A stretch of DNA of 64,000 bases from positions 2,452,312 to 2,516,311 of the forward strand of contig OZ251529.1 in NCBI GenBank assembly GCA_965243125.1, read 5' to 3'. The translations under genes were made by a program, and so were the position numbers. Every line of letters starts with the position of its first letter. Position 1 is the first letter of the stretch. Positions 12,690 through 56,560 of the stretch are shown piece by piece. Source of the stretch: Dehalococcoidia bacterium (GTDB lineage Bacteria; Chloroflexota; Dehalococcoidia; Bin125). The notes beneath the pieces are model-generated. The model saw nothing but the letters and a program-made list of their open reading frames with translations. It was not told the DNA's origin and did not search any database.

Positions 12690-13010
12690 CTCAATCTCCC
12701 CCCGCGACGGGGGGAGAGGCCGGAATTTGCCCCCTACGCGGGGCAGGGCGGTCTCTGTGCTGTGCGCGGTGCGCCGAGCCGACCCCCCAGTCCGCTACGC
12801 GGACAGCCCCCCTGCATAGGGGGGCGACTTTCAGAGCGGACAGCCCCCTGCATAGGGGGGCGACTTTCAGAGCGGACAGCCCCCTGCATAGGGGGGCGAC
12901 TTTCAGAGCGGACAGCCCCCTGCATAGGGGGGCGACTTTCAGAGCGGAAAGCCCCCTGCGTAGGGGCGATTTTCAGAGCGACGGCCCTGTGTGTAGGGGG
13001 TGATTCCGAA
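12690..13010. repeat. REP/MITE-like element cluster (family A) including about 4.5 tandem copies of a ~31-bp unit
   Basis: 'ccgaccccccagtccgctacgcggacagcccccctgcataggggggcgactttcagagc' followed by the repeated 'ggacagccccctgcataggggggcgactttcagagc'. Each unit carries a stem-loop (cccccc-tgcata-gggggg). Confidence 0.8.
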
Positions 13011-13026
13011 GTGGTGGATTGCGGCG

Positions 13027-16000
13027 CTACTCGGTGCCGGCGACGGCGCGGGCTTCGGCTTCGGCGCGCTCGCGGAGGACGCGGCGGTATTCGCGCGGGA
13101 CCACTTTGACGAATTGGGGGAGCACGACATCCCAGCGGCTGAGCAGGTCGGCGGCGCGGGGGCTGGCGGTGCGCTCGTGGTGGGTTTCGACCAGCTCGTG
13201 CAGCTGGGCCTGATCGCGGCGGCTGCCGACGGGTTCGAGATCGACCATTGAGTGGTTGACGCGGGCGGCGAATGAGCCGTCTTCATCAAGCACGAAGGCG
13301 GTGCCGCCGCTCATGCCGGCGGCGAAGTTGCGGCCGGTGGAGCCGAGCACGACGACGGTGCCGCCGGTCATGTATTCGCAGCCGTGGTCGCCGACGCCTT
13401 CAACGACGGCGCGCGCGCCGGAGTTGCGCACGGCGAAGCGCTCGCCGGCGCGTCCCGCCACCCAGAGCGTGCCGCCGGTCGCACCGTAGAGCACGGTATT
13501 GCCGACGAGCACGGCGTCCTTGCCGTCGAAGCCGGCGTGCTCGGCGGGCGAGACGGCGATCATTCCGCCGCCCATGCCCTTGCCCACGTAGTCGTTGGCT
13601 TCGCCGCGCAGGTAGAGGCGCAAGCCGCGCACGAGGAACGCGCCGAACGACTGGCCGGCGGAGCCGTCGAAGTAGAGCTCGATGGTGCCGCGCGGCAGGC
13701 CGGAATCGCCGTAGCGCCCCGCGATCTTGCCGGAGATGCGCGCCCCGACGGTGCGGTGAATGTTGTCGATCGGGTAGCGAGCGGTGAAATACTCGCCCGA
13801 CTCGATGTGCGGCTCGAGCCGTTCCAGGATCTGGTCGTCCAGCCGCACATCCTCAATGCGGTCGTTGCGCTCCTGGGTGCGAATGCGGGGGTAGGCGGGG
13901 TCGGCCTCGATCGGGGCCAGCAGGCGGCTGAGGTCGACGCTGCGGGCGCGCTCGCCGCTGCGCGGCGGGATCTGCTTGAGCAGCTCGGTGCGGCCGACGA
14001 TCTCCTGGAGACTCTCGTAGCCGAGTTCAGCGAGGATGGTGCGGACCTCCTCGCTGACATGGAGCAGGAAGTCGATCAGCATTTCGGGCTTGCCGAAGTA
14101 CTTGGAGCGCAGGTCTTCGCGCTGGGTGGCGACGCCGACGGGGCAGGTGTTGAGGTGGCACTGGCGGGCCATCTTGCAGCCCAGCGCGACCAGCGCGGAA
14201 GTGCCGAAGCCGTAGCCCTCCGCGCCGAGCAGGGCGGCGACAACCACATCGCGCCCGGTGTGGAAGCCGCCGTCGGTGCGCAGCAGGATGCGCCCGCGCA
14301 GGCCGTTGACGACCAGCGCTTCGTGCGCTTCCTTGACGCCCAGCTCCCAGGGCGCGCCGGCGTACTTGACCGACGAAAGCGGCGACGCGCCGGTGCCGCC
14401 GTCGGCTCCGGAGATGTGGACGATATCGGCGTAGGCCTTGGCTACGCCGGTGGCGATCGTACCGACGCCCTCGCAGGCGACCAGCTTCACGCAGACGCGC
14501 GCCTTGGGGTTGGCGATTTTGAGGTCGTAGATCAGCTGCGAGAGGTCTTCGATGGAGTAGATGTCGTGGTGCGGCGGGGGCGAGATCAGCTCGACGCCAG
14601 GCGTGGAGTGGCGCAGCATGGCGATGTAGTTGGTCACTTTGTGGCCGGGCAGCTGGCCGCCCTCGCCGGGCTTGGAGCCCTGGGCGATCTTGATCTCGAT
14701 CTCGCCGGCGCTGTTGAGGTAGCCGGGCGTGACGCCGAAGCGGCCGGAGGCGATCTGCTTGATCTGCGAGTTGGCCTCGTGGCGGTCGCCGTCGGCCAGG
14801 AAACGGCGCGGGTCTTCACCGCCCTCGCCGGTGTTGGAGCGTCCGCCGAGCCGGTTCATGGCGACGGCGATGTCCTCGTGCGCTTCGGGGCTGAGCGCAC
14901 CGAGCGACATTGCGCCGGTGCTGAAGCGGTTGATGATCTCCTCGTTGGACTCGACCTGGTCAACCGGAATGGCGGCGCGGTCGGAGCGGAAGTCGAGCAG
15001 GTCGCGGAGCGCGGTGGGCCGGCGGTCGTTGACCATCTGCGAGAACTGGTTGTAGGACTCCGCGCCTTCCTCCTTGGTGCTCTGAACGGCGCGGTGGAGC
15101 AAGCGCCAGATCGGCGGTTCGTTGGCGTGGTAGTCGCCGTCGCGCCGGTAGCGGTACCAGCCGCCGGCGTCGAGGTGGTCGGTGGGGAAGGCGTGGGAGT
15201 GCCGTTCGAGCGCGTCGGCGGCGATTTCGGCGTAGCCGATGCCGCCGATCCGCGAAGTGGTGCCGTGGAAGGAGCGCTCGACGAGTTCCTCATCGATGCC
15301 GAGCGCCTCATAAATCTGCCCGCCGAGGTAGGAGGAGACGGAGGCGATGCCCATCTTGGACATGATCTTGAGCACACCGGCGTCGAGCGCGCTGAGGTAG
15401 CGGTCGATGACCTCGTTGAGGCTCATCTCCTCGAGCTCGCCCTCGGCGTGCAGGCCGGCGAGGCTCTGGAATGCCAGCCAGGGGTGGACGGCGTTCGCGC
15501 CGAAGCCGATCAGGCAAGAGACCTGATGCACGTCGCGGGCGTCGCCGCAGCTGGCGATGATGCTCGCGTCGAGCCGGCGGCCGTTCTGGATCAGGTGGTG
15601 GTGGACGGTGGCGACGGCGAGCAGCATCGGGATCGGCGCGCGCGCGGCGCTGACCGCTTCGTCGGACAGAATCAGCACGCTGTAGCCGTCCCCGATGGCG
15701 TTATCGACGTGGTCGCAGAGCGCGTTGAGCGCGGGTTCGAGGCCGGCCTCGCCGTCGGCGGCGGCGAACGTGGCGTCGAGCGTGGTGGCGGAGAAACCGG
15801 GCAGGCGGAATTCGCGGATCGCGGCGAGGTCGTCTTCGAGCAGGATCGGCGAGGAGAGATGGACGAGTTGGGCGGCTTCGGGCGCTTCTTCGAGCAGCGA
15901 GTGGCGGCGTCCGAGCCAGGTGTCGAGCGACATCACGTTGCGCTCGCGGATCGAGTCGATCGGCGGGTTGGTGACCTGGGCGAACTTCTGGCGGAAGTAG

Positions 16001-17779: not shown

Positions 17780-18000
17780 GGCGGGGAATCTTCCCTCTAC
17801 GCAGGAGCTGTCAGCGTTTCCAATCGCCCCCCTACGCAGGGGGCTGTCGCGTAGCGACTGGGGGTCGGCGCGGCGTACCGAGCACAGCACAGGCCCCGTC
17901 CCGACCCCCCCGCCGCTAGAAGCGGCGGCCCCCCTGCGTAGGGGGGCGATTCCGGAGGGGACGATTCCGGAGGGGGCGATTCGGAGGGGGTGATTGGGGA
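17780..18000. repeat. REP/MITE-like element (family A)
   Basis: Inverse orientation: 'ctgtcgcgtagcgactgggggtcggc...cccctgcgtaggggggcgattccggag' with direct 'ggcgattcc' sub-repeats. Confidence 0.8.
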
Positions 18001-18004
18001 GGGG

Positions 18005-19354
18005 CTAGAGCAGTTCTTCGCGGCGGAGGTCGGCGAGGGAGGCGGCGAAGGCGTTGATGGTGGCGTCGATCTCGGCGTCGCTGTGGACGCAGGAGACGAT
18101 TGCGCCCATGCCTATCAGGTCGACGCCGTGATTGGCCATGGCGCGGCGGAAGGGCCAGGCGACGGCCGGCGGCGTGGGTGCGAGCTCGGGCTGCGGGCCG
18201 CCGAGCGGCTCCCAGCTCCAGGTGACGCCGTCGTCGGGGCGGGGGAGGTCGGTACCCAGCGCGATATGCACCATCGACATGTCGGCGAAGGCCGCGCCGG
18301 GAATTTCGGCGCTGCGCAGGGCGTCGTTGAAGCCGCGGGTGAGGCGTTTGGCCTGCTCGGCGGCGACGCCGACGGGGTTTTCCTCGGCCACGGCGGCGAG
18401 GGCGCGCGCGCCGGCGGCGGCGCTGAGCGGGTTGGCGTTGAAGGTGCCGGGATGAGCGACGCGCTCCGCGCCCGCCTCAAAGGCGATCTGGTCGATCAGG
18501 TCGGCGCGTCCGACGACCGCGCCGCCGGGCAGGCCGCCGGCGGCGATTTTGGCGAGCGTGGTGAGGTCGGGGCGGACGCCGAGGCGCTGCTGCGCGCCGC
18601 CCTCGCTCGCGCGGAAGCCGGTCACCACCTCGTCGAAGATCAGGATAGTGTCGGACTGCTCGGTGAGGGCGCGCAGCTGCTGGGGGATTTCGGGCGGCAG
18701 CGGGCAGGTTCCCCACGAGTAGCCGGTCGGCTCGAGGATCACGGCGGCGAACTCGCGGGCAGCGAGCACGTCGGCGATGCCGGGGAGGTCGGTCTGGTCG
18801 AAGACGGCGATGGTTTCGCCGATCGCGCGGGAAAGTCCGCTGTCGCCGATTCGGCCGGCGGAGGTGCGGCCGCCGACCATCACGCTGTCGTTCCAGCCGT
18901 GGAAGTGGTTGCGCAGGCGGAGCAGGCGGTCGCGTCCGGTGGCTGCGCGGGCGAGGCGGACGGCCATCATCGTGGCTTCGGTGCCGGAGGAGGTGAAGCG
19001 GACTTTTTCGGCGCTGGGCATGAGGCGTTGGATGGCGCGCGCCCACTGCGCCTCGTAGTCGTTGGAGCCGCCCAGATGGGTACCCCGCGCGACCTGCTGC
19101 TGCACCGCCTCGACCAGATAGGGGTGGCTGTGGCCGAAGAGCAGCGCGCCGTGGCCCATCACGTAGTCGATCAGCTCGTTGCCGTCGACGTCCCACTTGC
19201 GCGGCCCGACGGCGCGGTCGATGAACAGCCCGAAGGGGTCGAAAAAGCGCACATCGTGGGTGACGCCGCTGGGAAACAGCTCGCGCGCCTCGGCGGCGCG
19301 CTCCGCCGAGGTCCGGTGCCGCTCGAAGAACTCGCGGTCGATGCTGGTGGTCAT
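18005..19354 (-). CDS. Class III (acetylornithine/GSA-type) PLP-dependent aminotransferase
   Basis: 449 aa with blocks 'DVDGNELIDYVMGHGALLFGH' and 'ILIFDEVVTGFR' typical of glutamate-1-semialdehyde aminomutase-like class III aminotransferases. Confidence 0.8.
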   Translation of the reverse strand: MTTSIDREFFERHRTSAERAAEARELFPSGVTHDVRFFDPFGLFIDRAVGPRKWDVDGNELIDYVMGHGALLFGHSHPYLVEAVQQQVARGTHLGGSNDYEAQWARAIQRLMPSAEKVRFTSSGTEATMMAVRLARAATGRDRLLRLRNHFHGWNDSVMVGGRTSAGRIGDSGLSRAIGETIAVFDQTDLPGIADVLAAREFAAVILEPTGYSWGTCPLPPEIPQQLRALTEQSDTILIFDEVVTGFRASEGGAQQRLGVRPDLTTLAKIAAGGLPGGAVVGRADLIDQIAFEAGAERVAHPGTFNANPLSAAAGARALAAVAEENPVGVAAEQAKRLTRGFNDALRSAEIPGAAFADMSMVHIALGTDLPRPDDGVTWSWEPLGGPQPELAPTPPAVAWPFRRAMANHGVDLIGMGAIVSCVHSDAEIDATINAFAASLADLRREELL

Positions 19355-20679: not shown

Positions 20680-20860
20680 TTGGTCCGGAGCTGGGGCGGC
20701 CGACCCCCCAGTCCGCTGCGCGGACAGCCCCCCTGCGTAGGGGGCGATTGGGAAAGGCGGACAGCCCCCCTCTCAATCTCCCCCCGCGACGGGGGGAGAG
20801 GCCGGAAGGGTCTCGCCGCGGCGGGGGAGAGGCCGGAAGGGTCTCGCCGCGATGGGGGGA
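20680..20860. repeat. REP/MITE-like element (family A) with a second hairpin module
   Basis: 'gccgaccccccagtccgctgcgcggacagcccccctgcgtaggggg' plus 'cccctctcaatctccccccgcgacggggggagaggccggaagggtctcgccgcg', the latter twice. Confidence 0.8.
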
Positions 20861-20941
20861 GGATTGGCGGCGGCGGCTTCTGTTTCGCGGCTTGTATCAT
20901 TGGGGCGGCTGCGGCTGATTGGCTGCGGTGCGCGAAGAGAG

Positions 20942-22162: not shown

Positions 22163-22169
22163 GGGCTGT

Positions 22170-22360
22170 CCGCGATCGGGAATCGCCCCCCTATGCAGGG
22201 GGGCGCCGCTTCCAGCGGCGGGGGGTCGGAACGGGCGCTGTGCTGTGCTCGGTGCGCCGAGCCGACCCCCCAGTCCGCTACGCGGACAGCCCCCCTGCAT
22301 AGGGGGGCGATTGGGAAGCCGCCCCCTCTCAATCTCCCCCCACGATGGGGGGAGAGGGGG
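22170..22360. repeat. REP/MITE-like element (family A)
   Basis: 'gtgctgtgctcggtgcgccgagccgaccccccagtccgctacgcggacagcccccctgcataggggggcgattgggaag...ctctcaatctccccccacgatggggggagagg'. Confidence 0.8.
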
Positions 22361-22485
22361 GAAGAGCGACGTAAGGAATCGGTAAGGGGTTGGGAATGAG
22401 TTTGCGCGGCGGCGGGCGGGGGTGCGCCCTCGCGGCGCGGGGGCGTTAGCCTTGCGGGAGAGCGCAGCGGCGCTGAGAGAGGAAG

Positions 22486-26867: not shown

Positions 26868-26960
26868 GTGGACCGGCTGGTGGGGGGCGTCTGGTGCGCA
26901 GTGGGCGCCCCCCTCTCAATCTCCCCCCGCGACGGGGGGAGAGGTCGGAAGGGGAGTTTC
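26868..26960. repeat. REP/MITE-like element fragment (hairpin module 2)
   Basis: 'gcgcccccctctcaatctccccccgcgacggggggagaggtcggaagggg'. Confidence 0.75.
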
Positions 26961-27469: not shown

Positions 27470-27471
27470 CG

Positions 27472-30254: not shown

Positions 30255-32222
<1,968 letters not shown>

Positions 32223-39546: not shown

Positions 39547-40617
<1,071 letters not shown>

Positions 40618-40619
40618 CT

Positions 40620-40830: not shown

Positions 40831-40846
40831 ACTGGTGGCGCAAGCC

Positions 40847-41719: not shown

Positions 41720-41724
41720 CGCCT

Positions 41725-43999: not shown

Positions 44000-44011
44000 C
44001 GCAGCCCTTCA

Positions 44012-45103
44012 ATGCGACCGATGCGAATCGCCTTCGTGATGCCCTACGACCTCGCCCGCCCGGGCGGCGTGCGCACCCACACGCTGGCGCTGGCCTCGTG
44101 GCTGCGCGGCCGGGGCTGCGACGCGCACGTGATCGCCCCCGGCGCCGACACGGCGGCGGAGCAGCCGTGGCTTCACCCGGTCGGCCGGCCGCTTCGCGTG
44201 CCGATCGGCGGCAGCATCGGCAACCTGAGCCTCAGCCCGCGCGCCGTTCCCCGCATCCGCGAGCTGCTCAGCGAGGATTGGGACATTCTGCACATCCAGG
44301 AGCCGCTGATCCCGTCGCTGGGCCTGCTTGCGCTCCAATTCAAGCCCGCCCGCGCCCGCGCCGTGCTGACCTTTCACAGCGCCGAGCGGATCGCGGGACG
44401 CCTCTACACCACCGCCGCGCCGCTGCTGCGCCGCTACACCGCCCGCGCCGACGCCCGCATCGTTGTCTCCAGCGCCGCGCTCGACGCGGCCCGCCCGATC
44501 CTCTGCGGCCCCGCCTCGATCATTCCCCCCTGCATCGAGACCGCTGCGCCGAGCGCACGGGCCGCCGCCGAGCCGGCCGCGATTCTGTTTGTGGGGCGCG
44601 ACGAACCGCGCAAGGGTCTGCTCACGCTGCTCCGCGCCCTGGCCGCACTCGAGGATCCTCGGCCCACCTTGCACATCGCAGGGTCCGTCCGCCCCGCCAC
44701 GCGCCGGCTCGCCCGGCGGCTCGGCGTGGCGGAGCGCGTCGTGTTCCACGGTCCGCAGTCGAGCGAGGGCATCCGCGACCTGCTCGGCCGCGCCGCGCTG
44801 TTCTGCGCCCCGGCGCTGGGCGGCGAGGCGCTCGGGCTGGTGCTGGTTGAGGCCATGGCCGCCGGAGTGCCCGTCGTGGCCTCCGAGATCGACGGCTACC
44901 GCATCCCCGCGCGCGCCGGCCGCGCCGCGCTGCTCGCCCCGCCCGGAGACGCTGCGGCGCTGGCTGCGGGCATCGCCCGCGCCCTCTCGGATCAGCCGCT
45001 GCGCCGCCGTTTAGCCGCCGCCGGCCGCGCCTCCGCACGCCGCTTCAGCGCGCGGACGGTGGGCGCGGAGCATCACCGCGTCTATAACCGCCTGCTGTCG
45101 TAG
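44012..45103 (+). CDS. Family GT-B (GT4-like) glycosyltransferase
   Basis: 363 aa; N-terminal 'MRIAFVMPYDLARPGGV' and C-terminal 'EALGLVLVEAMAAGVPVVAS' (EX7E region) are typical of GT4 retaining glycosyltransferases such as PimA. Confidence 0.85.
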   Translation: MRPMRIAFVMPYDLARPGGVRTHTLALASWLRGRGCDAHVIAPGADTAAEQPWLHPVGRPLRVPIGGSIGNLSLSPRAVPRIRELLSEDWDILHIQEPLIPSLGLLALQFKPARARAVLTFHSAERIAGRLYTTAAPLLRRYTARADARIVVSSAALDAARPILCGPASIIPPCIETAAPSARAAAEPAAILFVGRDEPRKGLLTLLRALAALEDPRPTLHIAGSVRPATRRLARRLGVAERVVFHGPQSSEGIRDLLGRAALFCAPALGGEALGLVLVEAMAAGVPVVASEIDGYRIPARAGRAALLAPPGDAAALAAGIARALSDQPLRRRLAAAGRASARRFSARTVGAEHHRVYNRLLS

Positions 45104-45236
45104 TTATGCGCGGAAACTGTTAGCGCAGCGTGTGTTAGCGCAACGTGATTGACGCTGCGATGACGCGAACGCGCCGCGCCGCCGCCTACTGTGGCATCAC
45201 TGCCGTGGCGGCGGGGCTTCTCTCACACGTACAGCG

Positions 45237-45887
45237 GTGTCGTTACTACCACACACCCTGTCCCAGTCGATTTCCGAGCGGGTCGCCCGCGCGGTTGCGC
45301 GTACCGGTCTGACGCCCAACGCGCTGACGCTGATCGGACTGCTCGGCATGGGCGGCGCTGCGTATCTCGCCTCGATCGGCTGGTTCTGGCAGGCGGGCGT
45401 GGTGATGCTCGCTGCCGGCGCGTTCGACCTCTTCGACGGCGCAGTGGCCCGCTACACGAACACTGCGAGCGACTGGGGCGCGGTGTTCGACGCGGTGAGC
45501 GACCGGTTGGCCGACTTCGCGATTCTCTTCGGGCTGCTCTTCTGGTATCTGGGCGAGGAGCGCTTCAACCGCGACGCGGTGATTCTGATCACGCTCAGCC
45601 TGAGCGGCTCGATGCTCGTCTCCTATACGCGCTCCAAGGCGGCGGAGTTCGGCATTCAGATCCGCTCCGGTCTGGGCACGCGGCTGGAGCGGATTCTGAT
45701 TCTGGTGATCGGACTGCTGTCGGGCCAGGTGGTCGCGGTGCTCTGGCTGCTGGCTGCGCTCTCCAACCTCACCGCGCTCCAGCGCTGGGTGATGACCTGG
45801 CTGGCCGCCCGCCAGCTCGAGCGCGAAGAGGCGGAGCTGGGCGTGGAAGCTGCGGCCCAGGAAAGCCCGTTCGACCGCGAGCTGTGA
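45237..45887 (+). CDS. CDP-alcohol phosphatidyltransferase (PgsA/phosphatidylinositol-phosphate synthase-like)
   Basis: 216 aa, multi-TM, with 'DLFDGAVARYTNTASDWGAVFDAVSDRLAD' (the D-G-x2-A-R...G-x3-D-x3-D signature). Confidence 0.85.
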   Translation: MSLLPHTLSQSISERVARAVARTGLTPNALTLIGLLGMGGAAYLASIGWFWQAGVVMLAAGAFDLFDGAVARYTNTASDWGAVFDAVSDRLADFAILFGLLFWYLGEERFNRDAVILITLSLSGSMLVSYTRSKAAEFGIQIRSGLGTRLERILILVIGLLSGQVVAVLWLLAALSNLTALQRWVMTWLAARQLEREEAELGVEAAAQESPFDREL

Positions 45888-45890
45888 CGA

Positions 45891-46517
45891 TCAGGACGCA
45901 GGCCACCACACATCGCTGAAGTCCACGACGAGCCCCGGCAGCACATCCTCGCCGGAGAGGGTGTCGGGGCGTTCGAGTTGCTCAGGCTCTTGGCCGGGGC
46001 GGTAGATGTAGGCGATGTCGTCGAACGGATCGATCAGCCAGGCGAGGCGCGCGCCGCTGTCGATCCAGAACTGCATCTTGTCGAGCTGGTCGGGCAGTCT
46101 GTCGGAGATCGAGCGGACTTCGATCACGAAATCGGGGCAGAGGCGCAGCATGCCCTCAAGGTCGCGGCGTCCCTGCGGCAACCGCGTGCCGGACACCCAG
46201 GCGATATCGGGCGCTCTGATGGCGCGGTCGTTGATGCGATAGAACCCGTCCGGCGTCGTCACGATGCCGTCCATGACGACGCGCCACCACTCGTACATCT
46301 GCCCCAGGATGATGAACGAGCGGAAGCTGCTGTAGAAACCCGCGCCGCCCATGATGATCAGCCTTCCGTGTTCGTCGACCTCGAAGCGCCATTCGGGGTT
46401 GAGTTCGCAGAGCTGCTCGAAGGCGTCGTCGGTGAACTCCCACGCCGGCGGCGTGCAGAGACGCAGAGGACCGGCTGCAACGGCTGCGGTTGTGACGGGT
46501 TTGGTTGCGGTGACCAT
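45891..46517 (-). CDS. Uma2-family (DUF820, PD-(D/E)xK-like) endonuclease, paralog 1
   Basis: 208 aa; 'FTDDAFEQLCELNPEWRFEVDEHGRL' and C-terminal 'PDFVIEVRSISD...AWLIDP' pattern of Uma2 proteins. Confidence 0.7.
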   Translation of the reverse strand: MVTATKPVTTAAVAAGPLRLCTPPAWEFTDDAFEQLCELNPEWRFEVDEHGRLIIMGGAGFYSSFRSFIILGQMYEWWRVVMDGIVTTPDGFYRINDRAIRAPDIAWVSGTRLPQGRRDLEGMLRLCPDFVIEVRSISDRLPDQLDKMQFWIDSGARLAWLIDPFDDIAYIYRPGQEPEQLERPDTLSGEDVLPGLVVDFSDVWWPAS

Positions 46518-46549
46518 GATGCCGCCAGTCTACCGATTGCCGGCGGCGA

Positions 46550-47176
46550 TCAGGACGAGGGCCACCAGACCTTGCTGAGATCGACCACCAGCCCCGGCAG
46601 CACATCTTCGCCGGAGAGGGTGTCGGGGCGTTCCAGCTGCTCAGGCTCCCGGGCGGGGCGGTAGATGTAGGCGATGTCGTCGAACGGATCGATCAGCCAG
46701 GCGAGACGCGCGCCGCTGTCGATCCAGAACTGCATCTTGTCGAGCTGGTCGGGCAGTCTGTCGGAGATCGAGCGCACCTCGATCACGAAGTCGGGGCAGA
46801 GACGCAGCATGCGCTCAAGGTCGTCTCTGTTCTGCGGCAATCGCTCGCTCGAGACCCAAGCGACGTCGGGCGCGCGCAGCACCCTGCCGCGAATGCGGTA
46901 GAAGCCGTCCGCGCCGCTGACGCCGCCGTGGCCGTCGCTCTCCGTCCAATCATCGACCTGCCTGCCGAGTTTCACAGACCGGCGGCTGCTCTCGAAACCC
47001 GGGCTGCCCATGAACACCAGCCTTCCGTGTTCGTCAACCTCGAAGCGCCACTCGGGGTTCAGCTCGCAGAGTTGCTCGAAGGCGTCGTCGGTGAACTCCC
47101 AGGCCGGCGGCGTGCAGAGACGCAGGGGCTCAAGGCCCGCGACGGCGGGCGCGGAAGGCGTTGTTGCGGTCACCAT
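46550..47176 (-). CDS. Uma2-family endonuclease, paralog 2 (tandem duplicate)
   Basis: 208 aa, about 85-90% identical to paralog 1 apart from an 80-aa central segment. Confidence 0.7.
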   Translation of the reverse strand: MVTATTPSAPAVAGLEPLRLCTPPAWEFTDDAFEQLCELNPEWRFEVDEHGRLVFMGSPGFESSRRSVKLGRQVDDWTESDGHGGVSGADGFYRIRGRVLRAPDVAWVSSERLPQNRDDLERMLRLCPDFVIEVRSISDRLPDQLDKMQFWIDSGARLAWLIDPFDDIAYIYRPAREPEQLERPDTLSGEDVLPGLVVDLSKVWWPSS

Positions 47177-47213
47177 GGCGAGACCAGAGGATCGGGTGGG
47201 GCGGCGGCCGCCG

Positions 47214-47849
47214 CTAGGCGTTGGACTGGACGAGGTCGATCAGCTCGTCGACCGTGGCGTCGCGCCAGGAGGCCCATTCGTCGGAGGACTGGAGGTCGCG
47301 GTAGGCGTTGCGGATGCGGGCGCGCATCTCGTCTTCGGACTCGCCGTCCTGGCGGGAGAAGAGCTTCTGCATGTTGGCCATGTGCTCGTTGGCGACGGCG
47401 GGGCGCTCGATCCAGTGGCCGATGTACTCGTGGTCGAGGGTGTAGAGCACGGCGGTGGGGATGGACTCGTGCTGGCCGTCCTTGAGGAACTCGGCCATGA
47501 TGTCGCTGTGCTCGTCGCGCGGGAAGATGCGCAGTTCCCAGCCGGCGTTGGCCGCGATTTCGGCGAGCACGGGCAGGCCGCGGTAGACATCGGGGCACCA
47601 GTCCTCGCCGAGCACCAGCATCTTCAGACGGGGGAGGGACTGGAGGGTGTCGCGGGCGTCGTCGGAGATTTGCCAGGCGGACATGTTGCGGACGAAGCGC
47701 TCAACGTTGGCGTCGCCGCGGGGCGCGCCGCCGGGGGTGGGGCGCTGCTGGCTCTCCTCGGAGGTGATGTAGGCGAGGTACTGGTTCCAGGTCATGCCGG
47801 ACTTGAAGCGTTCGGGGGTGACGACGGATTCGCGGACGGCGGTGGTCAT
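47214..47849 (-). CDS. Thioredoxin-fold family protein (degenerate WCPDV motif)
   Basis: About 210 aa; 'MLVLGEDWCPDVYRGLPVLAEI' at the position of a CxxC motif, but the second Cys is replaced. The start is chosen at MTTAVRE. Confidence 0.5.
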   Translation of the reverse strand: MTTAVRESVVTPERFKSGMTWNQYLAYITSEESQQRPTPGGAPRGDANVERFVRNMSAWQISDDARDTLQSLPRLKMLVLGEDWCPDVYRGLPVLAEIAANAGWELRIFPRDEHSDIMAEFLKDGQHESIPTAVLYTLDHEYIGHWIERPAVANEHMANMQKLFSRQDGESEDEMRARIRNAYRDLQSSDEWASWRDATVDELIDLVQSNA

Positions 47850-48347
47850 GTGGGGTTCCTTTCGCGGCGTGCGCGTTCGTTGAGACGGCGTCGGCCGTTG
47901 GGCGCAGGGTAGCACCGCGCCTGAGGCTTCGTCCGCGCTTTGCCGTTCGGCTACTGGTGCTCCTGGTGGCAGGGGCACGAGCACTCGTCGAGCGAGTAGC
48001 GCATGACCTCCATGTAGGTCGACTCGGCGAGATGCTCGGCGAGCGCCTCGGGCAGTTTTTGGCCGCTCGCATCGCCCGCCTTGCGGATCGCGTCGTAGGC
48101 GTAGACGGCCATCGCCGCCGACCGATTGATCACGTCCGCGATGTCGCTGCGGATCACTCCCTCTTCGCCGGCGTGTCGTTCGTCCACCACCATGGCGACC
48201 TCCCGCCGGCCTGCATCACGCGGCGTCGTGCGGCGCGCTGGGCCGCTCTGCGCTCGGCCGGCGGTCCTAGAATACACAGGCCGCCGCTCGCTCAACCGCC
48301 CGCGCGCGACGCACCTGCACGACAGATCCGTAGGAGAGGACACCGCC

Positions 48348-49247
48348 ATGCCGCCAATGGAGTTCGGCGCTCAGATTCCCGCCTGGCACTGGCACTGGGA
48401 TGTCTCGGAGGTGCGCGACTGGGCGCAGGGGGTGGAGGCGATCGGCCTCGATCTGATTTCGATGGCGGACCACGTGACCTACGCCTACGAGCTGCCGGAT
48501 CGGCTCAACGACGGGCCGTATCAGGACGATGTGCATCAGCACGAGGTGCTGATCACGCTGGCCTGGCTGGCGGCGCAGACGAGCCGCGTCGCGCTCCAGA
48601 CCAACGTGCTGGTGCTGCCGCAGCGCGAGCCGGTGCTGGTCGCCAAGCAGGCCGCCGAAATCGACATCCTCTCGGGCGGGCGCTTTCGGCTGGGCATCGG
48701 CGTGGGCTGGCAGGTGCCGGAGTTCGAGTCGCTGGGAGCGTCGTTCCGCCAGCGTCCGTCGCGGATGGAGGAGGCCATCCACGTGCTGCGGGCGTGCTGG
48801 ACGGAGGAGCCGATCAACTTTGAGGGGCGCTACACGACGATGCGCGAGATGAGCATGCTGCCCAAGCCGGTGACGCCGGGCGGGCCGCCGATTCTGTTCG
48901 GCGGCTTCTCCGATCCGGCGCTGGACCGCGCGGCGCGGCTGGGCGACGGCTGGATCGCGCCGGTGCAGTCGGACATCGACCACCTGATCGGCTTCACGGA
49001 GAAGATCCGGGCGGCGCTGGAGCGTCACGGGCGGGAGGCGGAGGAGTTTCCGATCCAGTGGCTGCCGCCGCTAGACACGGACATCGCGGCGACACGGCGC
49101 ACGCTGGTCGCGGCGCGGGAGGCGGGAATCACGCGGCTGGGCATCGGGATGCCCAACTACGACCGCGAGGCCGCCGTGCCGGTGGATGAGTATCTGCGGC
49201 ACATCGAGACGGTCTGGCGGGAGATTTGGCCGGAGCTGCGGGGGTGA
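48348..49247 (+). CDS. Luciferase-like monooxygenase (LLM) class F420-dependent oxidoreductase
   Basis: About 300 aa TIM-barrel LLM pattern ('ISMADHV', 'VLVLPQREPVLVAKQAAEIDILSGGRFRLGIGVGW'). Confidence 0.8.
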   Translation: MPPMEFGAQIPAWHWHWDVSEVRDWAQGVEAIGLDLISMADHVTYAYELPDRLNDGPYQDDVHQHEVLITLAWLAAQTSRVALQTNVLVLPQREPVLVAKQAAEIDILSGGRFRLGIGVGWQVPEFESLGASFRQRPSRMEEAIHVLRACWTEEPINFEGRYTTMREMSMLPKPVTPGGPPILFGGFSDPALDRAARLGDGWIAPVQSDIDHLIGFTEKIRAALERHGREAEEFPIQWLPPLDTDIAATRRTLVAAREAGITRLGIGMPNYDREAAVPVDEYLRHIETVWREIWPELRG

Positions 49248-49255
49248 GGGGCGCG

Positions 49256-49450
49256 ATGACGCGATTGCGCCGCTTTCTGTGGCCTTCAGTGCGGAGCGTC
49301 CTGGAAGACGATCAGCTGTCCGGAGATGAGCGTCGGGAGGCAGCGGAGCGCATCCTTGACCAGCGGCACCGACGAATGATCTGCGCGATATTCGTCGGCG
49401 GCGCAGTGATGATCGTGGCAACTGCGCTGCTTTGGATCTTCCTGCGGTGA
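49256..49450 (+). CDS. Tail-anchored mini-protein (64 aa)
   Basis: MTRLRRFLWPSVRSVLEDDQLSGDERREAAERILDQRHRRMICAIFVGGAVMIVATALLWIFLR. The C-terminal TM resembles the tails of 49497-49600 and 49751-50164. Confidence 0.4.
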   Translation: MTRLRRFLWPSVRSVLEDDQLSGDERREAAERILDQRHRRMICAIFVGGAVMIVATALLWIFLR

Positions 49451-49462
49451 TGCGCGGCGGGC

Positions 49463-49600
49463 CTAGATCGCGTCGGGGCCGGGCCAGATCTGGATGGCGA
49501 TGTCGGCCAGTCGCTCGCAGCGCGAAACGCTGCGGGCGATGATCGTGGTGGCGGGCGTCGCAGTGGCTGCGATCGGGCTGCTGATCGCGTTCCTCTAGCC
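49463..49600. other. Decayed duplicate of the convergent gene junction (GmrSD 3' end-like 60 nt plus a tail-anchor-encoding 3' end), with a possible 34-aa tail-anchored ORF (49497-49600)
   Basis: 49463-49525 is about 88% identical to 50169-50230 (the reverse-strand 3' end of the DUF262/DUF1524 gene). 49540-49600 parallels 50100-50164, and the potential peptide MAMSASRSQRETLRAMIVVAGVAVAAIGLLIAFL matches the tail of the coiled-coil protein. Confidence 0.6.
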
Positions 49601-49750
49601 CGGGCCGCCTGACGCCAGATCGCGCCAGGCTGGGCAGGGGATGTGAGGGCTGATCGTCGCCCGGGAGGCGGGATTACGCGGCTGTGGATCGGGATGCCGA
49701 GCTATGGCTGCGCGACGGCGGCGGCGGTTGATCTGCGCTAGAATGGAGCC

Positions 49751-50164
49751 ATGGCAGCCATACCGTCGCTGGACTGGTACGAAAAGCTGATCGCGGCCGG
49801 CTTCACCGAGAAACAGGCGCTGAATCGCCAGCTGCTCGAAAGCGACCACAAGATCGACAACCTCCAGCGCAATGTGGACCAGCTGCGCACAGATATGGAG
49901 AACGGCTTCACGCAGGTGCAGGAGGCGATGGAGCGCGGCTTCGCTCAGCTGCGGGCCGACATGCAGCGCGACATGGAGCAGCTGCGGCTGGAAATGAAAC
50001 GAGATCTCGAACTGGGCCAGGCGGAGCAGCGGCGGCACACGGAGCAGATCGCCAGTGAGGCCAGGCAGCACTCGGACCGGATCGAGCGGAACACGCTGGT
50101 TGCGATGATTGTGGTGGCGGGAGTGATCATCGCGGCGGTGGGGCTGATCGTCGCGCTGCTGTAG
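49751..50164 (+). CDS. Coiled-coil tail-anchored membrane protein (XhlA/DUF1640-like architecture)
   Basis: 137 aa: a heptad-rich region (NLQRNVDQLRTDMENGFTQVQEAMERGFAQLRADMQRDMEQLRLEMKRD) and a C-terminal TM (LVAMIVVAGVIIAAVGLIVALL). Convergent with the GmrSD-like gene, with 4 nt between the stops. Confidence 0.6.
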   Translation: MAAIPSLDWYEKLIAAGFTEKQALNRQLLESDHKIDNLQRNVDQLRTDMENGFTQVQEAMERGFAQLRADMQRDMEQLRLEMKRDLELGQAEQRRHTEQIASEARQHSDRIERNTLVAMIVVAGVIIAAVGLIVALL

Positions 50165-50168
50165 CGGT

Positions 50169-51995
50169 CTAGACCGCGTCTGGGCCGGGCCAGATCTGGA
50201 TGGCGATCTCAGTCAGCCGCTTGCTGCGGGCAAGAATCGTCGCCTCATCCCACACATCGCCCGCGTGCTTGATGAGGTCGTGATTGATCGGCGTGAGGCT
50301 GTGCTTCTGGATCTCCGGGCGTTTTTCAGACCATGGATCGTCGGAGATGGCCGAATTGAGGGATTGTGTGACCAATGTGAGGTTGCCGATCGTGTGGACC
50401 AGACGATCGCGTGCTGCCTCCGCCGTTTCGCTGGCATGCGCGAGTTCCTCTGCCGGCGCATCCCATTTCTCGCCGCGCCACTTTTGCGGCATCACGTGTT
50501 CAATGCTCAGCGACGAGTAGTCGTAGTTGAGCGGCTCGTTTTTCGCCGTGTGGAAGCTGCCGGCAAGTGCTTCGAGGACCATCGCCAGTTTGCGCCGGGC
50601 CAAGCCGCCGTACAGCGGCCGCTCGAGCAGGGCTTTCTCGAGCACGCTGTCGGACGGCCAGGCCCGACGCTCGACTGTTTGACTTCGCAGGTGGTCGATC
50701 ACGACGGCATCGGCGGCGGCGGGAGCGGCCTCATTCAGGCGCTTCAGGATTTCCTGCATCACGCGGTTCAGTCCCATGCTGGTGCGTCCGCACAGCGCGC
50801 GGCGCACGAGATAGCTCTCCAGCGCTCGGACAGCGCTGACAGTCCTTTCGCGGGATTCTGCGGGCACGTTCGCCATGAGCCAGAGCAGCACCGGCGTCAC
50901 AACGCCGACGTCCAGGATGTCGAAACGGGCGAGTTGGGTTGAGATGTCGGATTCTGCCGACGGGTCCGCGAGTTGGACGTAGAAATCCGAGACGGAATTC
51001 ATGTCGCCCACAACATCGCCGATCTTGCCATCATGCCCCTCGGTGTATTCGCGGAATGTGCGGAACACGTCGCCGGCCAGCACTTCGTCGGCAACCCGCA
51101 TAGTGAGCCAGTAGTTCAAGAACTGCTCGACGCGCTGGCGGCGAATGCGCCCCTGCTGGACCTCGGTGGTCCACCAGTCGTCGAGGTAGCGCACCAGCCA
51201 CTTTTCCGCCACGGCCTCGGCGTCAAGCCCATCGCGCTGTGCGGCGTGGATGATGTAGTTCTTGACGAGATCCGACTGCAAGAGGGGCGTACCGCGTGCG
51301 TTCAGGGTCTCGAAGATGACCTGCGGATCGACATCGGGACCAAGGTCGATCACGACCAACAGCAGGTAGCGCCTCAGGACGGAATACAGAGCTTTGGCAC
51401 GCGCTGGATTCACATCACCATCGTCGCGGAGCCACTCACGGACCTTGTTGCGGAAGAAGTTGTGTGCCTCAACGAGCGGCGAGTCTTCGTGCTCTTTCGT
51501 CGGCAGGTCGTTGTGCATCGCATGCCGAAAAGCCTCGCGGTCGGCACGTGTCGGCCAGACTTTGAAGTGATCTTCGTCAACCTCAACGAAGTCGTCATCG
51601 TTCGCGACGAGGACACGTAGGCGCGCCGACAGTTTGTCACCTGCGATTTCGTACTCCTCCTGTGCTGCATCGAGCAGCAACTGGAGAGTCGTCAATCGCT
51701 GTTGTCCATCGATCACCAGCCGGATATCGATGTCGCCTGTCGGCTGCCGTTCCTGTTGCACGACGACAGCACCCAGGAAGTGGCTGGCGCGACTATCCTC
51801 AGAGACTGCGACATCGTTCGGCGTGTCAGCATGCTGCTCTGCGAGGGCGCTCACGTCATTCCACAGCGGATCCCACTGCTCGTCCTCGTTCCACACGTAG
51901 CGGCGCTGGAACGGCGGAATCACATAGCGAATTGGCCCTTGAAAGAGCTTCGCCGAATTCCGCACATTGACTTCGATCGAGGCGTCCTGTGGCAT
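50169..51995 (-). CDS. GmrSD-family type IV (modification-dependent) restriction endonuclease, DUF262 (ParB-like NTPase) plus DUF1524 (His-Me/HNH-like nuclease)
   Basis: N-terminal 'RYVIPPFQRRYVW' and 'LVIDGQQRLTTL' (DGQQR) are DUF262 signatures. C-terminal 'SIEHVMPQKW...HTIGNLTLVTQSLNSA' is the DUF1524 H...N...N core. Confidence 0.85.
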   Translation of the reverse strand: MPQDASIEVNVRNSAKLFQGPIRYVIPPFQRRYVWNEDEQWDPLWNDVSALAEQHADTPNDVAVSEDSRASHFLGAVVVQQERQPTGDIDIRLVIDGQQRLTTLQLLLDAAQEEYEIAGDKLSARLRVLVANDDDFVEVDEDHFKVWPTRADREAFRHAMHNDLPTKEHEDSPLVEAHNFFRNKVREWLRDDGDVNPARAKALYSVLRRYLLLVVIDLGPDVDPQVIFETLNARGTPLLQSDLVKNYIIHAAQRDGLDAEAVAEKWLVRYLDDWWTTEVQQGRIRRQRVEQFLNYWLTMRVADEVLAGDVFRTFREYTEGHDGKIGDVVGDMNSVSDFYVQLADPSAESDISTQLARFDILDVGVVTPVLLWLMANVPAESRERTVSAVRALESYLVRRALCGRTSMGLNRVMQEILKRLNEAAPAAADAVVIDHLRSQTVERRAWPSDSVLEKALLERPLYGGLARRKLAMVLEALAGSFHTAKNEPLNYDYSSLSIEHVMPQKWRGEKWDAPAEELAHASETAEAARDRLVHTIGNLTLVTQSLNSAISDDPWSEKRPEIQKHSLTPINHDLIKHAGDVWDEATILARSKRLTEIAIQIWPGPDAV

Positions 51996-52001
51996 GGGCT
52001 T

Positions 52002-54377: not shown

Positions 54378-55259
54378 ATGGCGCTTGGACGGGCGGAACG
54401 GGCGCAGGTGCGGCAGCAGCTGGAGGCGGTCGCGGGGCCGATCAAGATCGACTATTTCCACCAGAGCAAGCGGCAGGTGGTGGTGCCGGGGCGGCCGGAG
54501 CGCCCGAGCTGCGAGCTGGCGATCGAGCTGTACACGGAGCTGACGTCGCTGTCGGAGCAGGTGACGCTGAATGTGTATGAGTTCGAGGACGAGCCGGCGC
54601 AGGCGAAGCGGCGGGACGCGCAGGATGTGCCGTGCGCTGTGGTGCGCGGGGAGCTGAACCGTCCGCTGCGGATGTACGGCGTGCCGAACGGGCATCTGTT
54701 CGTGGCGTTCGTGCGGGCGCTGGTGCTGGCCTCGGCGCGGGACGGCAAGCCGTCGGCGCAGATGAAGCAGGCGCTGGGCAAGCTGCGGCGTCCGACGCGG
54801 CTGCGGCTGTTCGGCGCGTACGCCGATCAGAACAGCGGGCAGGCGGCGCTGATGTACTGGGCGACGGCGCTGCTCTCGCCGAAGCTGGAGACGGATGTGT
54901 ACGCGATTGAGGAGTTCGCGCCGCTGGCGCAGCGTCTGGGCGTGAACGCCTTGCCCACGGCGTTGGTCGACGATGAGTTTGCGGTGGCGGGGATCGTCGA
55001 TCCGATCGAGTTGGCGCGCTATGTGGGGCTGGCGCAGGCGCGTCCGAATCGGGCGCGGCTGAACCCGCCGCAGGCGCAGGCGGGCTCGCTGACGGGCTGG
55101 CGTCCGCCGCCCCCGCCGCCGGGCCCGCGACGCGCGCCGGCCGGCGAGCCTGCGGCCCCGGATCCGATTGCGCAGGCGGCGGGGCGGGCGCGTGAGGCGG
55201 CGGCCACGCCTGAGGGGATGCGGCGGACGGCGGGCGGGTTGATTGTGCCGGATCGGTAG
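54378..55259 (+). CDS. Hypothetical protein, possibly glutaredoxin/thioredoxin-like two-domain fold
   Basis: About 290 aa (MALGRAERAQVRQQLEAVAGPIKIDYF...). The alternating beta-alpha pattern and the C-terminal Ala/Pro-rich tail give weak similarity only. Confidence 0.35.
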   Translation: MALGRAERAQVRQQLEAVAGPIKIDYFHQSKRQVVVPGRPERPSCELAIELYTELTSLSEQVTLNVYEFEDEPAQAKRRDAQDVPCAVVRGELNRPLRMYGVPNGHLFVAFVRALVLASARDGKPSAQMKQALGKLRRPTRLRLFGAYADQNSGQAALMYWATALLSPKLETDVYAIEEFAPLAQRLGVNALPTALVDDEFAVAGIVDPIELARYVGLAQARPNRARLNPPQAQAGSLTGWRPPPPPPGPRRAPAGEPAAPDPIAQAAGRAREAAATPEGMRRTAGGLIVPDR

Positions 55260-55460
55260 GGGCGGGGTCGGTGCGCTGGGGCGGCCGACCCCCCAGTCCG
55301 CTGCGCGGACAGCCCCCCTGCATAGGGGGGCGATTCCAGAGCGGACTGCTCCCTGCATAGGGGGGCGATTCCGGAGTGGGCAGCCTCCCTGCATAGGGGG
55401 GCGATTCCGGAGTGGCAGCCTCCCTGCATAGGGGGGCGATTCCAGAGCGGACCGCCCCCG
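55260..55460. repeat. REP/MITE-like element (family A) with a 4-copy ~31-bp tandem array
   Basis: 'gccgaccccccagtccgctgcgcggacagcccccctgcataggggggcgattccagagcggactgctccctgcataggggggcgattccggagtgggcagcctccctgcataggggggcgattccggagtggcagcctccctgcataggggggcgattccagagcgg'. Confidence 0.85.
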
Positions 55461-56039: not shown

Positions 56040-56410
56040 GCAGCGTTACGGACCCGGAGATCGCGGCGGCGTTGGCCCAGGATCTGGTGATCGACATCAC
56101 GACGACGGGGCGACGGAGCGGCGCGCCGCAACGGATCGAGATTTGGTACCATGTGGTGGACGGTCGGTACTACATCACGGGGCGTCCAGGGCCGCGCTCG
56201 TGGTACGCGAATGTGCTGGCCGAGCCGCGCATCATCTTCCACCTGAAGGAGTCAGCGGAGGCGGACCTGGCGGCGACGGCGCGGGCGGTGACGGATGCGG
56301 CGGAGAAGCGGGCGGTGTTCCTGGGCGCGCCGAAGCTGGGGGAGTACATCACGGAGGAGAACGTGCAGGAGTGGGTGGATGGGAGCCCGCTGATCGAGGT
56401 GGTGTTCTGA
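56036..56410 (+). CDS. DUF385/PPOX-class (deazaflavin F420-dependent nitroreductase-like) protein
   Basis: 124 aa; 'LVIDITTTGRRSGAPQRIEIWYHVVDGRYYITG' is the typical split-barrel opening of DUF385 Ddn-like proteins. The start overlaps the ogt stop (atga). Confidence 0.75.
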   Translation: MSSVTDPEIAAALAQDLVIDITTTGRRSGAPQRIEIWYHVVDGRYYITGRPGPRSWYANVLAEPRIIFHLKESAEADLAATARAVTDAAEKRAVFLGAPKLGEYITEENVQEWVDGSPLIEVVF

Positions 56411-56439
56411 GCGGGTTGGGGGTGGTGCGGCGTCTGTCT

Positions 56440-56560
56440 TGTGCTCGCGGCTCCGCGCCGATCCCCCAGTCCGCTTACGCGGACAGCCCCCCTGCATAGG
56501 GGGGCGATTCCGGAGAGCCCCCTCCGCCTCCCCCCCACGATGGGGGGAGAGGATGGTCAC
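56440..56560. repeat. REP/MITE-like element (family A)
   Basis: 'gccgatcccccagtccgcttacgcggacagcccccctgcataggggggcgattccggag...cccccccacgatggggggagagg'. Confidence 0.8.

Follow-up and report, generated by a model that had tools for sequence, protein, structure and literature searches.

A dispersed family of two-hairpin repeats, very likely of the REP type, in the chromosome of an uncultured Dehalococcoidia bacterium

The repeat loci, their genes and their units

The 64-kb stretch of contig OZ251529.1 described here (the window; 69% GC) carries ordinary chromosomal genes of a Dehalococcoidia bacterium and, in 11 of its intergenic gaps, copies of one family of hairpin-forming repeats. The genes include gltB, an aminotransferase, major facilitator superfamily transporters, acetyl-CoA synthetase, an inositol/phosphatidylinositol mannoside (PIM)-type cluster, OGT, F420-related enzymes and a GmrSD nuclease. 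The best named relatives of the encoded proteins come from metagenome-assembled genomes (MAGs) labeled "Chloroflexota/Chloroflexi/Dehalococcoidia bacterium." No transposase, cas, or phage gene and no tRNA or tmRNA gene was found in the window. We consider it very likely that the repeats are a lineage-specific family in the chromosome of an uncultured high-GC member of the Chloroflexota, similar to repetitive extragenic palindromic (REP) sequences, bacterial interspersed mosaic elements (BIMEs), and REP doublets forming hairpins (REPINs). This assignment is made because the units are short GC-rich palindromes, lie outside genes at gene 3' ends, occur in both orientations and as doublets around a linker, are rapidly gained and lost, change in unit number, and are conserved in sequence without being conserved in position.

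To census the family, small profiles were built for three recurring modules (the core, module A, and a linker), and tandem arrays were called with Tandem Repeats Finder. The profile searches returned 36 module matches on the two strands of the window, comprising 21 core, 9 module A, and 6 linker matches. All of them fall within the 11 loci, which span 12684-56558 and sum to about 1.8 kb (2.8% of the window length). The core CCCCCCTGCATAGGGGGG (consensus CCCCCC-TGCATA-GGGGGG-CGATT) matched 18 times with at most 2 mismatches, and the module A 32-mer CTCTCAATCTCCCCCCGCGACGGGGGGAGAGG matched 4 times with at most 3 mismatches; shuffled sequences gave an expectation of 0.00 in both cases. The linker GCTCGGTGCGCCGAGC is present as one exact copy (22247) and one copy with a single mismatch (12764), and six degenerate copies were found by profile.

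A sequence-only reading of this DNA had quoted several of these motifs, and they are present where it placed them, far above chance. It had counted at least 12 copies; the modules number more than 30, but the separate loci number 11. Both orientations, which it had also reported, were recovered as modules on the plus and minus strands. The two tandem expansions that it described as 4 to 5 copies of an ~31-bp unit are real arrays of 5.3 and 4.3 copies, but the measured period is 36 bp in array 1 and 35 bp in array 2. The recurring spurious peptide RGQPPCIGGRF, pointed out in the same reading, is the in-frame translation of CGCGGACAGCCCCCCTGCATAGGGGGGCGATTC.

The loci are closely tied to gene ends. 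None of the 36 module matches lies inside an open reading frame (ORF) supported by GC content at third codon positions (GC3) or by Pfam, and in 11 of 11 loci a cluster edge lies 0 to 40 bp from a stop codon. According to curated annotation, nine loci separate tandem genes and the other two separate convergent ones, with no locus in a divergent gap. The units point both ways relative to transcription. Two of the features by which REPs are recognized, a short (about 20 to 40 bp) imperfect palindrome able to form a stem-loop and an extragenic location, were thus both found.

The basic unit, termed alpha-REP, is about 50 bp long and consists of a left flank (CCGACCCCCC-AG), hairpin 1, the dinucleotide AG, hairpin 2, and a tail. 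Hairpin 2 (CCCCCC-TGCRTA-GGGGGG) is near-invariant, including its loop, and is followed by the tail CGATT(CCGGAG). Hairpin 1, which is GTCCGC-TAC-GCGGAC in alpha-REP, is variable and always paired; in a second subtype, beta-REP, it is GCCGC-TRGAA-GCGGC. The tetranucleotide RTAG straddles the point in hairpin 2 where the loop meets the 3' stem, reading ATAG in about three-quarters of the copies and GTAG in about one-quarter, and no GTAG was found outside the stem in the aligned copies. The linker CTGTGCTGTGCTCGGTGCGCCGAG bears a small hairpin of its own. Module A is a separate hairpin (CCCCCTCTCAATCTCCCCCC-GCGA-CGGGGGGAGAGGCCGGAAGGG) that usually follows an alpha unit, and it also occurs alone (26909-26952) or inverted (40623-40665).

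These parts occur in four arrangements: solo units, inverted doublets with a linker, head-to-tail arrays of a 35- to 38-bp unit, and units beside module A. The most common of these is the single unit, which lacks terminal inverted repeats. Alternating REPs around a conserved linker, the arrangement that characterizes BIMEs, are found where reversed and forward units flank the linker at 17807-17952, 22163-22313, and 28183-28324 and, in degenerate form, at 40697-40800; the long arrays are head-to-tail. The inverted doublets are a minority (3 to 4 of the 11 loci) and are outnumbered by solo units and direct arrays. At some sites the 3' arm plus the tail is repeated in tandem next to a complete hairpin, an arrangement that we call a half-site stutter. 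The features of each locus are collected in Table 1.

Table 1. Features of the 11 repeat loci, with window coordinates, support, and adjoining genes (L016 is a same-species contig)
Locus	Feature	Position	Strand	Support	Adjoining genes
1	Whole locus: module A, linker, alpha-REP, array 1	12684-12987			
1	Module A hairpin (CCCCCTCTCAATCTCCCCCC-GCGA-CGGGGGGAGAGGCCGGAA)	12684-12725	+	Profile E=1.4e-10; exact 32-mer	Begins 17 bp past stop of + strand gene 12049-12666
1	Linker hairpin (CTGTGCTGTGCGCGGTGCGCCGAG), then alpha-REP (CCGACCCCCC, GTCCGC-TAC-GCGGAC, CCCCCC-TGCATA-GGGGGG-CGA)	12755-12830	+	Linker E=9.4e-10; core E=8.3e-9	
1	Array 1: head-to-tail tandem array, unit GCGGACAGCCCCCTGCATAGGGGGGCGACTTTCAGA of 36 bp, 5.3 copies, last ones degenerate	12799-12987	+	Score 320; 94% matches	Between convergent genes; gltB stop at 13027
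2	Whole locus: inverted doublet and half-site stutter	17807-18004			
2	Alpha-REP (GTCGC-TAC-GCGAC hairpin 1) and linker, inverted; left arm of doublet	17807-17892	-	Core E=1.3e-7; linker E=1.1e-8	
2	Beta-REP (GCCGC-TAGAA-GCGGC, then CCCCCC-TGCGTA-GGGGGG-CGATT); right arm of doublet	17901-17952	+	Core E=3.2e-7	
2	Half-site stutter GGGGGCGATTCCGGA x 4.3, period 15 bp	17942-18004	+	Tandem Repeats Finder score 91	Ends exactly at stop codon of aminotransferase gene (18005-19354, - strand)
3	Whole locus: solo alpha-REP and module A	20692-20861			
3	Solo alpha-REP (hairpin 1 loop TGC; core CCCCCC-TGCGTA-GGGGG)	20692-20749	+	Core E=2.2e-7	20 bp past flavin reductase stop
3	Module A with 31-bp partial tandem duplication, 2.5 copies (20784-20861)	20766-20861	+	E=8e-11; period 31, score 135	Reaches start of solute-binding protein gene (20852)
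4	Whole locus: complete doublet and module A	22163-22364			
4	Complete inverted doublet (BIME/REPIN-like): reversed beta-REP 22182-22229, linker GCTCGGTGCGCCGAGC 22238-22273, forward alpha-REP 22262-22313	22163-22313	+		Directly follows stop codon 22160-22162
4	Module A, loop variant ACGAT	22322-22364	+	E=1.1e-12	
5	Solo module A	26909-26952	+	E=1.5e-11; exact 32-mer	19 bp beyond stop of DinB-family gene (26972-27640, - strand)
6	Degenerate reversed REP arm (GGCGC-GCA-GCGCC), linker, one alpha-REP unit, module A	28183-28385	+	Profile matches	Ends 6 bp from HAD hydrolase stop (28392, - strand)
7	Solo core, near-perfect palindrome (GAAATCGCCCCCCTGCACAGGGGGGCGATTTC)	29128-29163	both	Core E=1.1e-5 (+), 1.2e-3 (-); kept in L016	
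8	Module A (+, 40623-40665), degenerate unit, alpha-REP and linker (-, 40697-40770), degenerate forward core (CCCCCTGCGCAGGGGCGATT)	40620-40800	-		Begins 2 bp past Ino1 stop codon
9	Module A and solo alpha-REP (GTCGC-TGC-GCGAC)	41760-41868	-	E=6.1e-11, 2.6e-9; kept in L016	40 bp past acyltransferase stop
10	Alpha-REP, then array 2 (55305-55456, period 35; head-to-tail, 35- to 36-bp unit, 4.3 copies)	55259-55459	+	Score 234; 88% matches; four core matches	Begins right after stop 55257-55259
11	Linker, alpha-REP (hairpin 1 loop TTAC), module A	56420-56558	+	Profile matches	Fills gap between convergent genes (stops 56410, 56557)

Folding and covariation of the units

For the doublet region at 22163-22365, the fold is one long hairpin that contains a three-way junction; the junction forms because the two arms of the doublet are different subtypes (alpha and beta). 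As RNA, this region has a folding energy of -158.1 kcal/mol, compared with -107 ± 5 kcal/mol for shuffled sequences (z = -10.3); as DNA, the z score is -10.8. Pairing was then assessed in an alignment of 32 distinct copies from the window and related genomes, in which 98.5% of the cells were paired. Three pairs had changes on both sides, and the resulting covariation score was reached by 0 of 500 shuffles.

The variation is concentrated in hairpin 1, whose stem takes the forms GTCCGC/GCGGAC, GTCGC/GCGAC, GCCGC/GCGGC, GGCGC/GCGCC, and GTCTGC/GCAGAC and whose loop varies too. When one base is deleted in one arm of this hairpin, the deletion is matched on the other arm (11 of 11 cases). Between the window and a contig that is 96% identical to it, two orthologous copies differ in just this compensated way, and the simplest explanation of these differences is conversion by another family member. 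Since hairpin 2 is invariant, whereas hairpin 1 varies and yet always pairs, these data suggest that hairpin 2 is subject to sequence-specific recognition and that hairpin 1 answers a purely structural need.

Stable hairpins, compensatory changes in hairpin 1, and the position of every cluster beside a gene 3' end could also be produced by independently selected cis-regulatory or structural RNAs (terminators, attenuators, or a small RNA family) that are not mobile DNA. A regulatory or structural RNA motif had been among the suggestions of the sequence-only reading. However, the units occur in both orientations relative to transcription with no bias, unrelated genes are followed by near-identical 50-mers, and a scan of the whole window against Rfam gave no match at gathering thresholds. 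In a terminator scan of the 12- to 30-kb interval, 0 of 8 terminator-like sites lay in repeat loci, and the count was not above that in shuffles; no T tract was found after the repeat units. The positions of the copies are not conserved either. The orthologous sites of relatives are empty and only 8 to 20 bp long, indicating that the genes function without the elements. We regard selection for an RNA function as a very unlikely origin of the family and do not retain that suggestion.

Turnover, distribution, and neighboring variable regions

Orthologous regions from related genomes were fetched by means of the Ino1 and gltB proteins. These comprised the same-species contigs L016, L017, and L023 (~96% nucleotide identity), contigs L020 and L021 of a sister species (~85%), the 3.0-Mb relative L025 (~87% identical in gltB), and the more distant L018, L019, L022, and L024, of which L018 derives from OZ251457.1. 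In the same-species contigs, repeats occupy the same sites, with length differences of whole units. Array 1 has 5 units in the window and 2 in L023, a difference of 108 bp (3 x 36) that is in phase. The locus at 28.3 kb has one unit in the window and three in L016 (76 bp, or 2 x 38), where hairpin 1 also carries a compensatory G-C to U-A change. The locus at 40.7 kb has one unit in the window and two in L016 (36 bp), with the GTCGC/GCGAC form of hairpin 1, a paired deletion. Array length therefore varies in whole units between strains, and the three length-variable loci bear out the earlier proposal that the arrays could serve as variable-number tandem repeats (VNTRs). Rearrangement within a locus was seen at 17.8 kb, where in L023 the linker and alpha-REP are flipped and the beta arm is missing. 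Several of the related contigs end at or near repeats.

Between species, whole clusters are present or absent. The site 3' of Ino1 is 231 bp long in the window and is a repeat-free 8 bp in L020; conversely, L020 has a 129-bp alpha-REP insertion beside an HTH_17 gene that is without a counterpart in the window and L016. This insertion consists of a solo alpha-REP and a degenerate unit, with no doublet. The site 3' of gltB is 360 bp in the window and 20 bp in L025. No repeat match was found in L025, in which the gene order is kept over 24 kb, or in L018, L019, L022, and L024 (~86 kb; ~110 kb including L025), and the counterpart of the array 2 site in L018, L019, and L022 is 82 to 93 bp long with no repeat match. 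Insertions are thus found both ways between lineages, and filled and empty orthologous sites exist, in agreement with the earlier description of the element as active or recently active. The outgroups do not all show the filled state that would be expected had every empty site arisen by deletion from a filled ancestor.

Presence/absence polymorphism is equally a property of miniature inverted-repeat transposable elements (MITEs), cut-down derivatives of DDE-type insertion sequences that are moved via terminal inverted repeats and leave target-site duplications. The doublets at 17807-17952, 22163-22313, and 28183-28324 have the appropriate form, being about 150 bp long with 23-bp inverted ends (GGAATCGCCCCCCTATGCAGGGGGG ... 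CCCCCCTGCATAGGGGGGCGATTCC). However, these doublets are outnumbered by solo units and head-to-tail arrays without terminal inverted repeats, and the insertion specific to L020 contains no doublet. No target-site duplication was seen at two filled/empty pairs, whose right boundaries are fuzzy at 85% identity, and a transposase gene is absent from the window and the fetched loci. We judge a MITE origin to be improbable. The label "REP/MITE-like" given by the sequence-only reading is accordingly kept in its first half, which fits short, extragenic, dispersed GC-rich palindromes with doublets, and dropped in its second.

A search with the core 20-mer of 185,579 species-representative genomes gave one match, the 3.26-Mb MAG "Dehalococcoidia bacterium" OZ251457.1, in which the 20-mer has 16 exact matches. 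Among 241 million metagenome records there was likewise one match, L015 (1-240), which is a clustered regularly interspaced short palindromic repeat (CRISPR) array on a human-gut contig. Its repeat, ACTCACGCCCCC-GCGT-GGGGGGCGAC, alternates with spacers of ~40 nt, and its C5/G6 hairpin resembles hairpin 2 by chance. Because this array is unrelated, it tells us nothing about the distribution of the family. With one matching genome in 185,579 and an unrelated sole metagenome match, the family is confined to a narrow clade. It is not confined to the window, since it is found in same-species contigs and in OZ251457.1. The density in the source species is about 1 locus per 4 to 6 kb (11 loci in 64 kb of the window, 4 in 13 kb of L016, and 2 in 7.4 kb of L023, all from the same species), and the family is rare or absent elsewhere.

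What the matching loci of OZ251457.1 have in common with the window is the repeats alone; the genes are not shared. The 55-nt unit consensus is identical in the two genomes. Individual copies have a median identity of 90% between them, compared with within-genome means of 84 to 91%; the OZ251457.1 copies were picked by the exact 20-mer, so that similarity is inflated over that stretch. For protein-coding genes that are syntenic between these genomes, DNA identity is mostly 67 to 77%. The repeat sequence is therefore conserved without conserved position between diverged genomes.

The metagenome match and the 35- to 36-bp palindromic units, which are of a kind seen in many CRISPR repeats, raise the question of whether the arrays are degenerate or orphan CRISPR arrays; a related possibility is that they are assembly or collapse artifacts of a low-complexity G/C motif. 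Spacers are absent from the arrays, whose period equals the unit length. No cas genes or domains were found in the window, and most copies are solo units or inverted doublets. Independent assemblies recover the same loci with unit-exact differences, and the structures recur in L016, L023, and L001-L014; because these assemblies come from other samples, the repeats are not assembly artifacts. The absence of spacers and the agreement of independent assemblies refute these explanations, to which we assign a negligible probability.

A second, unrelated repeat family is present at 1145-1667, 6488-6557, 6673-6820, and 58117-58467. It is located in the divergent gap 1117-1727 and in further gaps without the hairpin family and is found in OZ251457.1 too (L006, L007, L010, L011, L014, and L018). 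Its layout is CGTC-ATACCCGCG-CTTGC-CGCGGGTAT, with a variant CGTC-ATTCCCGC-CCCCGA-GCGGGAAT. It matches the CGTC-tagged REP superfamily (PMC3733652) in the CGTC tag, the 9-bp stem ATACCCGCG, and the 5-nt loop, whereas the hairpin family has no CGTC tag. Since the second family has this layout, more than one type of REP is present in the genome, as has been described for other bacteria. Half-site stutters occur in both families (17942-18004 and 20784-20861; 1426-1486, 58229-58295, and 58367-58464), with 2.5 to 4.3 copies and periods of 15 to 31 bp.

Other parts of the window also differ among the related genomes. The regions 32300-37100 and 49100-52000 are strain variable, and their gene content differs among the window, L016, and L020. 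The first region holds a DUF4238 protein (35562-36503), a double HTH_17 protein (36535-37002), and tandem small paralogues (34142-34945). A 1.7-kb segment (32223-33943, within 32065-34101) carries a 592-amino-acid ORF on the minus strand that has no Pfam match. The segment lies between two 158-bp direct repeats that are 94% identical and are duplicates of the acetyl-CoA synthetase gene's 3' end; L016 has a single copy of the repeat and no insert, and a homologue of the ORF, 78% identical, is found in L020. In the second strain-variable region, a GmrSD-type restriction enzyme gene (50169-51995) is flanked by small repeats (49103-49187/49649-49732 and 49460-49522/50166-50228).

The tract 46547-49254, containing Uma2-family, thioredoxin-like, and luciferase-like monooxygenase genes, shares 95% identity with OZ251457.1 (L018, 16747-19454), whereas the flanking syntenic genes are only 67 to 77% identical; L019 is 96% identical over 47194-47794. 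This pattern points to a tract that was recently recombined or transferred between lineages that have otherwise diverged. A 409-bp direct repeat (4421-4829/4902-5310; 72% identity) lies upstream of and overlaps the start of a 2-hydroxyacid dehydrogenase gene (5259-6470) and is probably a partial gene duplication. The PIM-type cluster (38568-45919) is kept in all relatives fetched. It encodes inositol monophosphatase, inositol-1-phosphate synthase (Ino1), two lipid-A-type acyltransferases, a PHP protein, a GT4 glycosyltransferase, and a CDP-alcohol phosphatidyltransferase, and Ino1 has a DNA identity of 89 to 90%, far above that of its cluster neighbors.

Proposed mechanism and comparison with known repeat systems

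New copies of the family would be made by a trans-acting enzyme that recognizes the invariant hairpin. By analogy, this enzyme may be a REP-associated tyrosine transposase (RAYT, or TnpA-REP), a Y1 transposase of the HUH class that acts on single-stranded DNA. TnpA-REP of this class recognizes a hairpin on single-stranded DNA, and Ton-Hoang et al. proposed nick-and-prime routes by which BIME units are added (PMC3333891). The length of the arrays may change by replication slippage, unequal exchange, or HUH nick-and-prime amplification. The nick-and-prime route would be consistent with the invariance of hairpin 2, with the head-to-tail arrays, and with the half-site stutters; the arrays would also be explained by plain slippage of replication where a strong hairpin lies, and the recurrent half-site stutter could arise by either process. 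Copies that are transcribed would form hairpins in 3' untranslated or intercistronic regions, where they may protect upstream mRNA and attenuate read-through, as in E. coli REPs, which are context-dependent 3' untranslated region stabilizers and partial terminators (bioRxiv 10.64898/2026.03.23.713779).

Several observations weigh against the REP assignment. REPs of the GTAG superfamily have a GTAG tetranucleotide tail at one end of the stem (PMC3733652). This rule fails here, where RTAG lies inside hairpin 2 and is mostly ATAG. Most REP families show head-to-tail arrangement rarely or not at all (PMC3733652), so that the frequent head-to-tail arrays are unusual. The orientation bias of the flanking genes is only a trend, nonsignificant in a larger sample: among 35 clusters in all sequences, an automatic gene call gave 14 convergent, 16 tandem, and 5 divergent placements (divergent depletion, p = 0.25). 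The GC3-based caller is crude, having missed the HAD gene and mislabeled locus 6. An effect at the RNA level, as with E. coli REPs, is plausible by analogy because copies are placed directly after stop codons.

The search for a partner enzyme was also negative. In REP-RAYT systems, or REPtrons, REPs flank the gene of a Y1 HUH transposase (Pfam Y1_Tnp). Six-frame ORFs from the window and 25 loci (330,482 bp) were all searched by phmmer with E. coli TnpA-REP and ISHp608 TnpA, checked against PDB 4ER8 and 2A6M, and no RAYT/Y1 transposase was found (best E = 0.68); nor was a Y1 transposase present among the Pfam annotations of the fetched loci. For 95 ORFs of L001-L014, a Pfam scan covered the top 25 of 104 families, too few to rule out Y1_Tnp there. 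The negative is weak because 330 kb is only ~5 to 10% of a genome. Since no RAYT was found in these 330 kb, the mobilizing enzyme is a putative one. The REP-like assignment, which we hold to be very likely despite these points, leaves two routes of spread. One is a REPIN-RAYT-type system outside the Proteobacteria, that is, a vertically inherited partnership of hairpin and enzyme with an unusual two-hairpin recognition unit; the other is spread free of RAYT. That one of these applies, with the arrays and stutters being footprints of HUH nick-and-prime events and not of simple slippage, is a possibility that we consider doubtful.

The repeats have practical consequences. They create spurious ORFs in annotation and break assemblies. 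Array 1 and the two loci at 28.3 kb and 40.7 kb have been shown to be polymorphic in length and provide markers for typing strains of an uncultured soil/sediment Chloroflexota population. The family also offers a clean and compact example of repeats that keep their sequence but not their positions, and it does so in a phylum that has been little investigated for repeats of this sort. If a partner enzyme were found, REP-transposase partnerships would extend beyond the well-studied Gammaproteobacteria, and the two-hairpin substrate could be used to study HUH target recognition. Current understanding of REP-type repeats is unchanged, and the biological interest is modest unless the partner enzyme proves unusual.

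As arrays, the repeats resemble the mycobacterial interspersed repetitive unit (MIRU)-VNTR loci, which are also intergenic and head-to-tail, with units of tens of base pairs and a strain-variable copy number usable for typing. The MIRU-VNTR loci of mycobacteria have units of 40 to 100 bp, are without a strong hairpin, and are not dispersed as inverted doublets.

There is also a likeness to E. coli REP/BIME sequences and TnpA-REP (PMC3333891). Both consist of short GC-rich imperfect palindromes that are extragenic and lie at gene 3' ends, both form inverted REP clusters with conserved linkers, and in both the location and cluster size vary among strains; in E. coli, BIME amplification has been modeled from HUH cleavage and repriming (PMC3333891). 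Unlike the E. coli sequences, with which they share no sequence similarity, the window units carry two hairpins and conserved flanks. E. coli BIMEs alternate Y and Z units, whereas the long arrays of the window are head-to-tail. The tag flanks the stem in E. coli REPs, whereas RTAG is inside hairpin 2 in the window family, for which no RAYT gene was found in 330 kb.

Pseudomonas REPINs and their RAYTs (PMC3116915, PMC3337134) offer a parallel to the doublets, since two inverted REPs fold as a single long hairpin. In these REPINs, as here, sequence is kept across species while positions turn over, and abundance differs widely among relatives. In contrast to REPINs, for which the doublet is by definition the predominant replicating unit, the doublets of the window are found at a minority of loci and combine alpha and beta arms, giving the three-way junction.

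REPs have been described before in this phylum. The GTAG-23 REPs of the Chloroflexi Thermomicrobium roseum, Roseiflexus castenholzii, and Chloroflexus aggregans (PMC3733652) have a high GC content, are largely clustered or grouped, and have small flanking palindromes, as does the family in the window. Their stem appears to be different: intragenic GTAG-23 copies encode GAAQPRTY-type peptides (PMC3733652), a coding content that a C6/G6 hairpin could not have. In T. roseum, GTAG-23 forms a few large blocks, whereas the family described here is dispersed at about 1 locus per 6 kb. Since GTAG-23 was already known in the Chloroflexi, REPs are not new to the phylum; the sequence family reported here appears to be new, and it belongs to a well-known kind of repeat.

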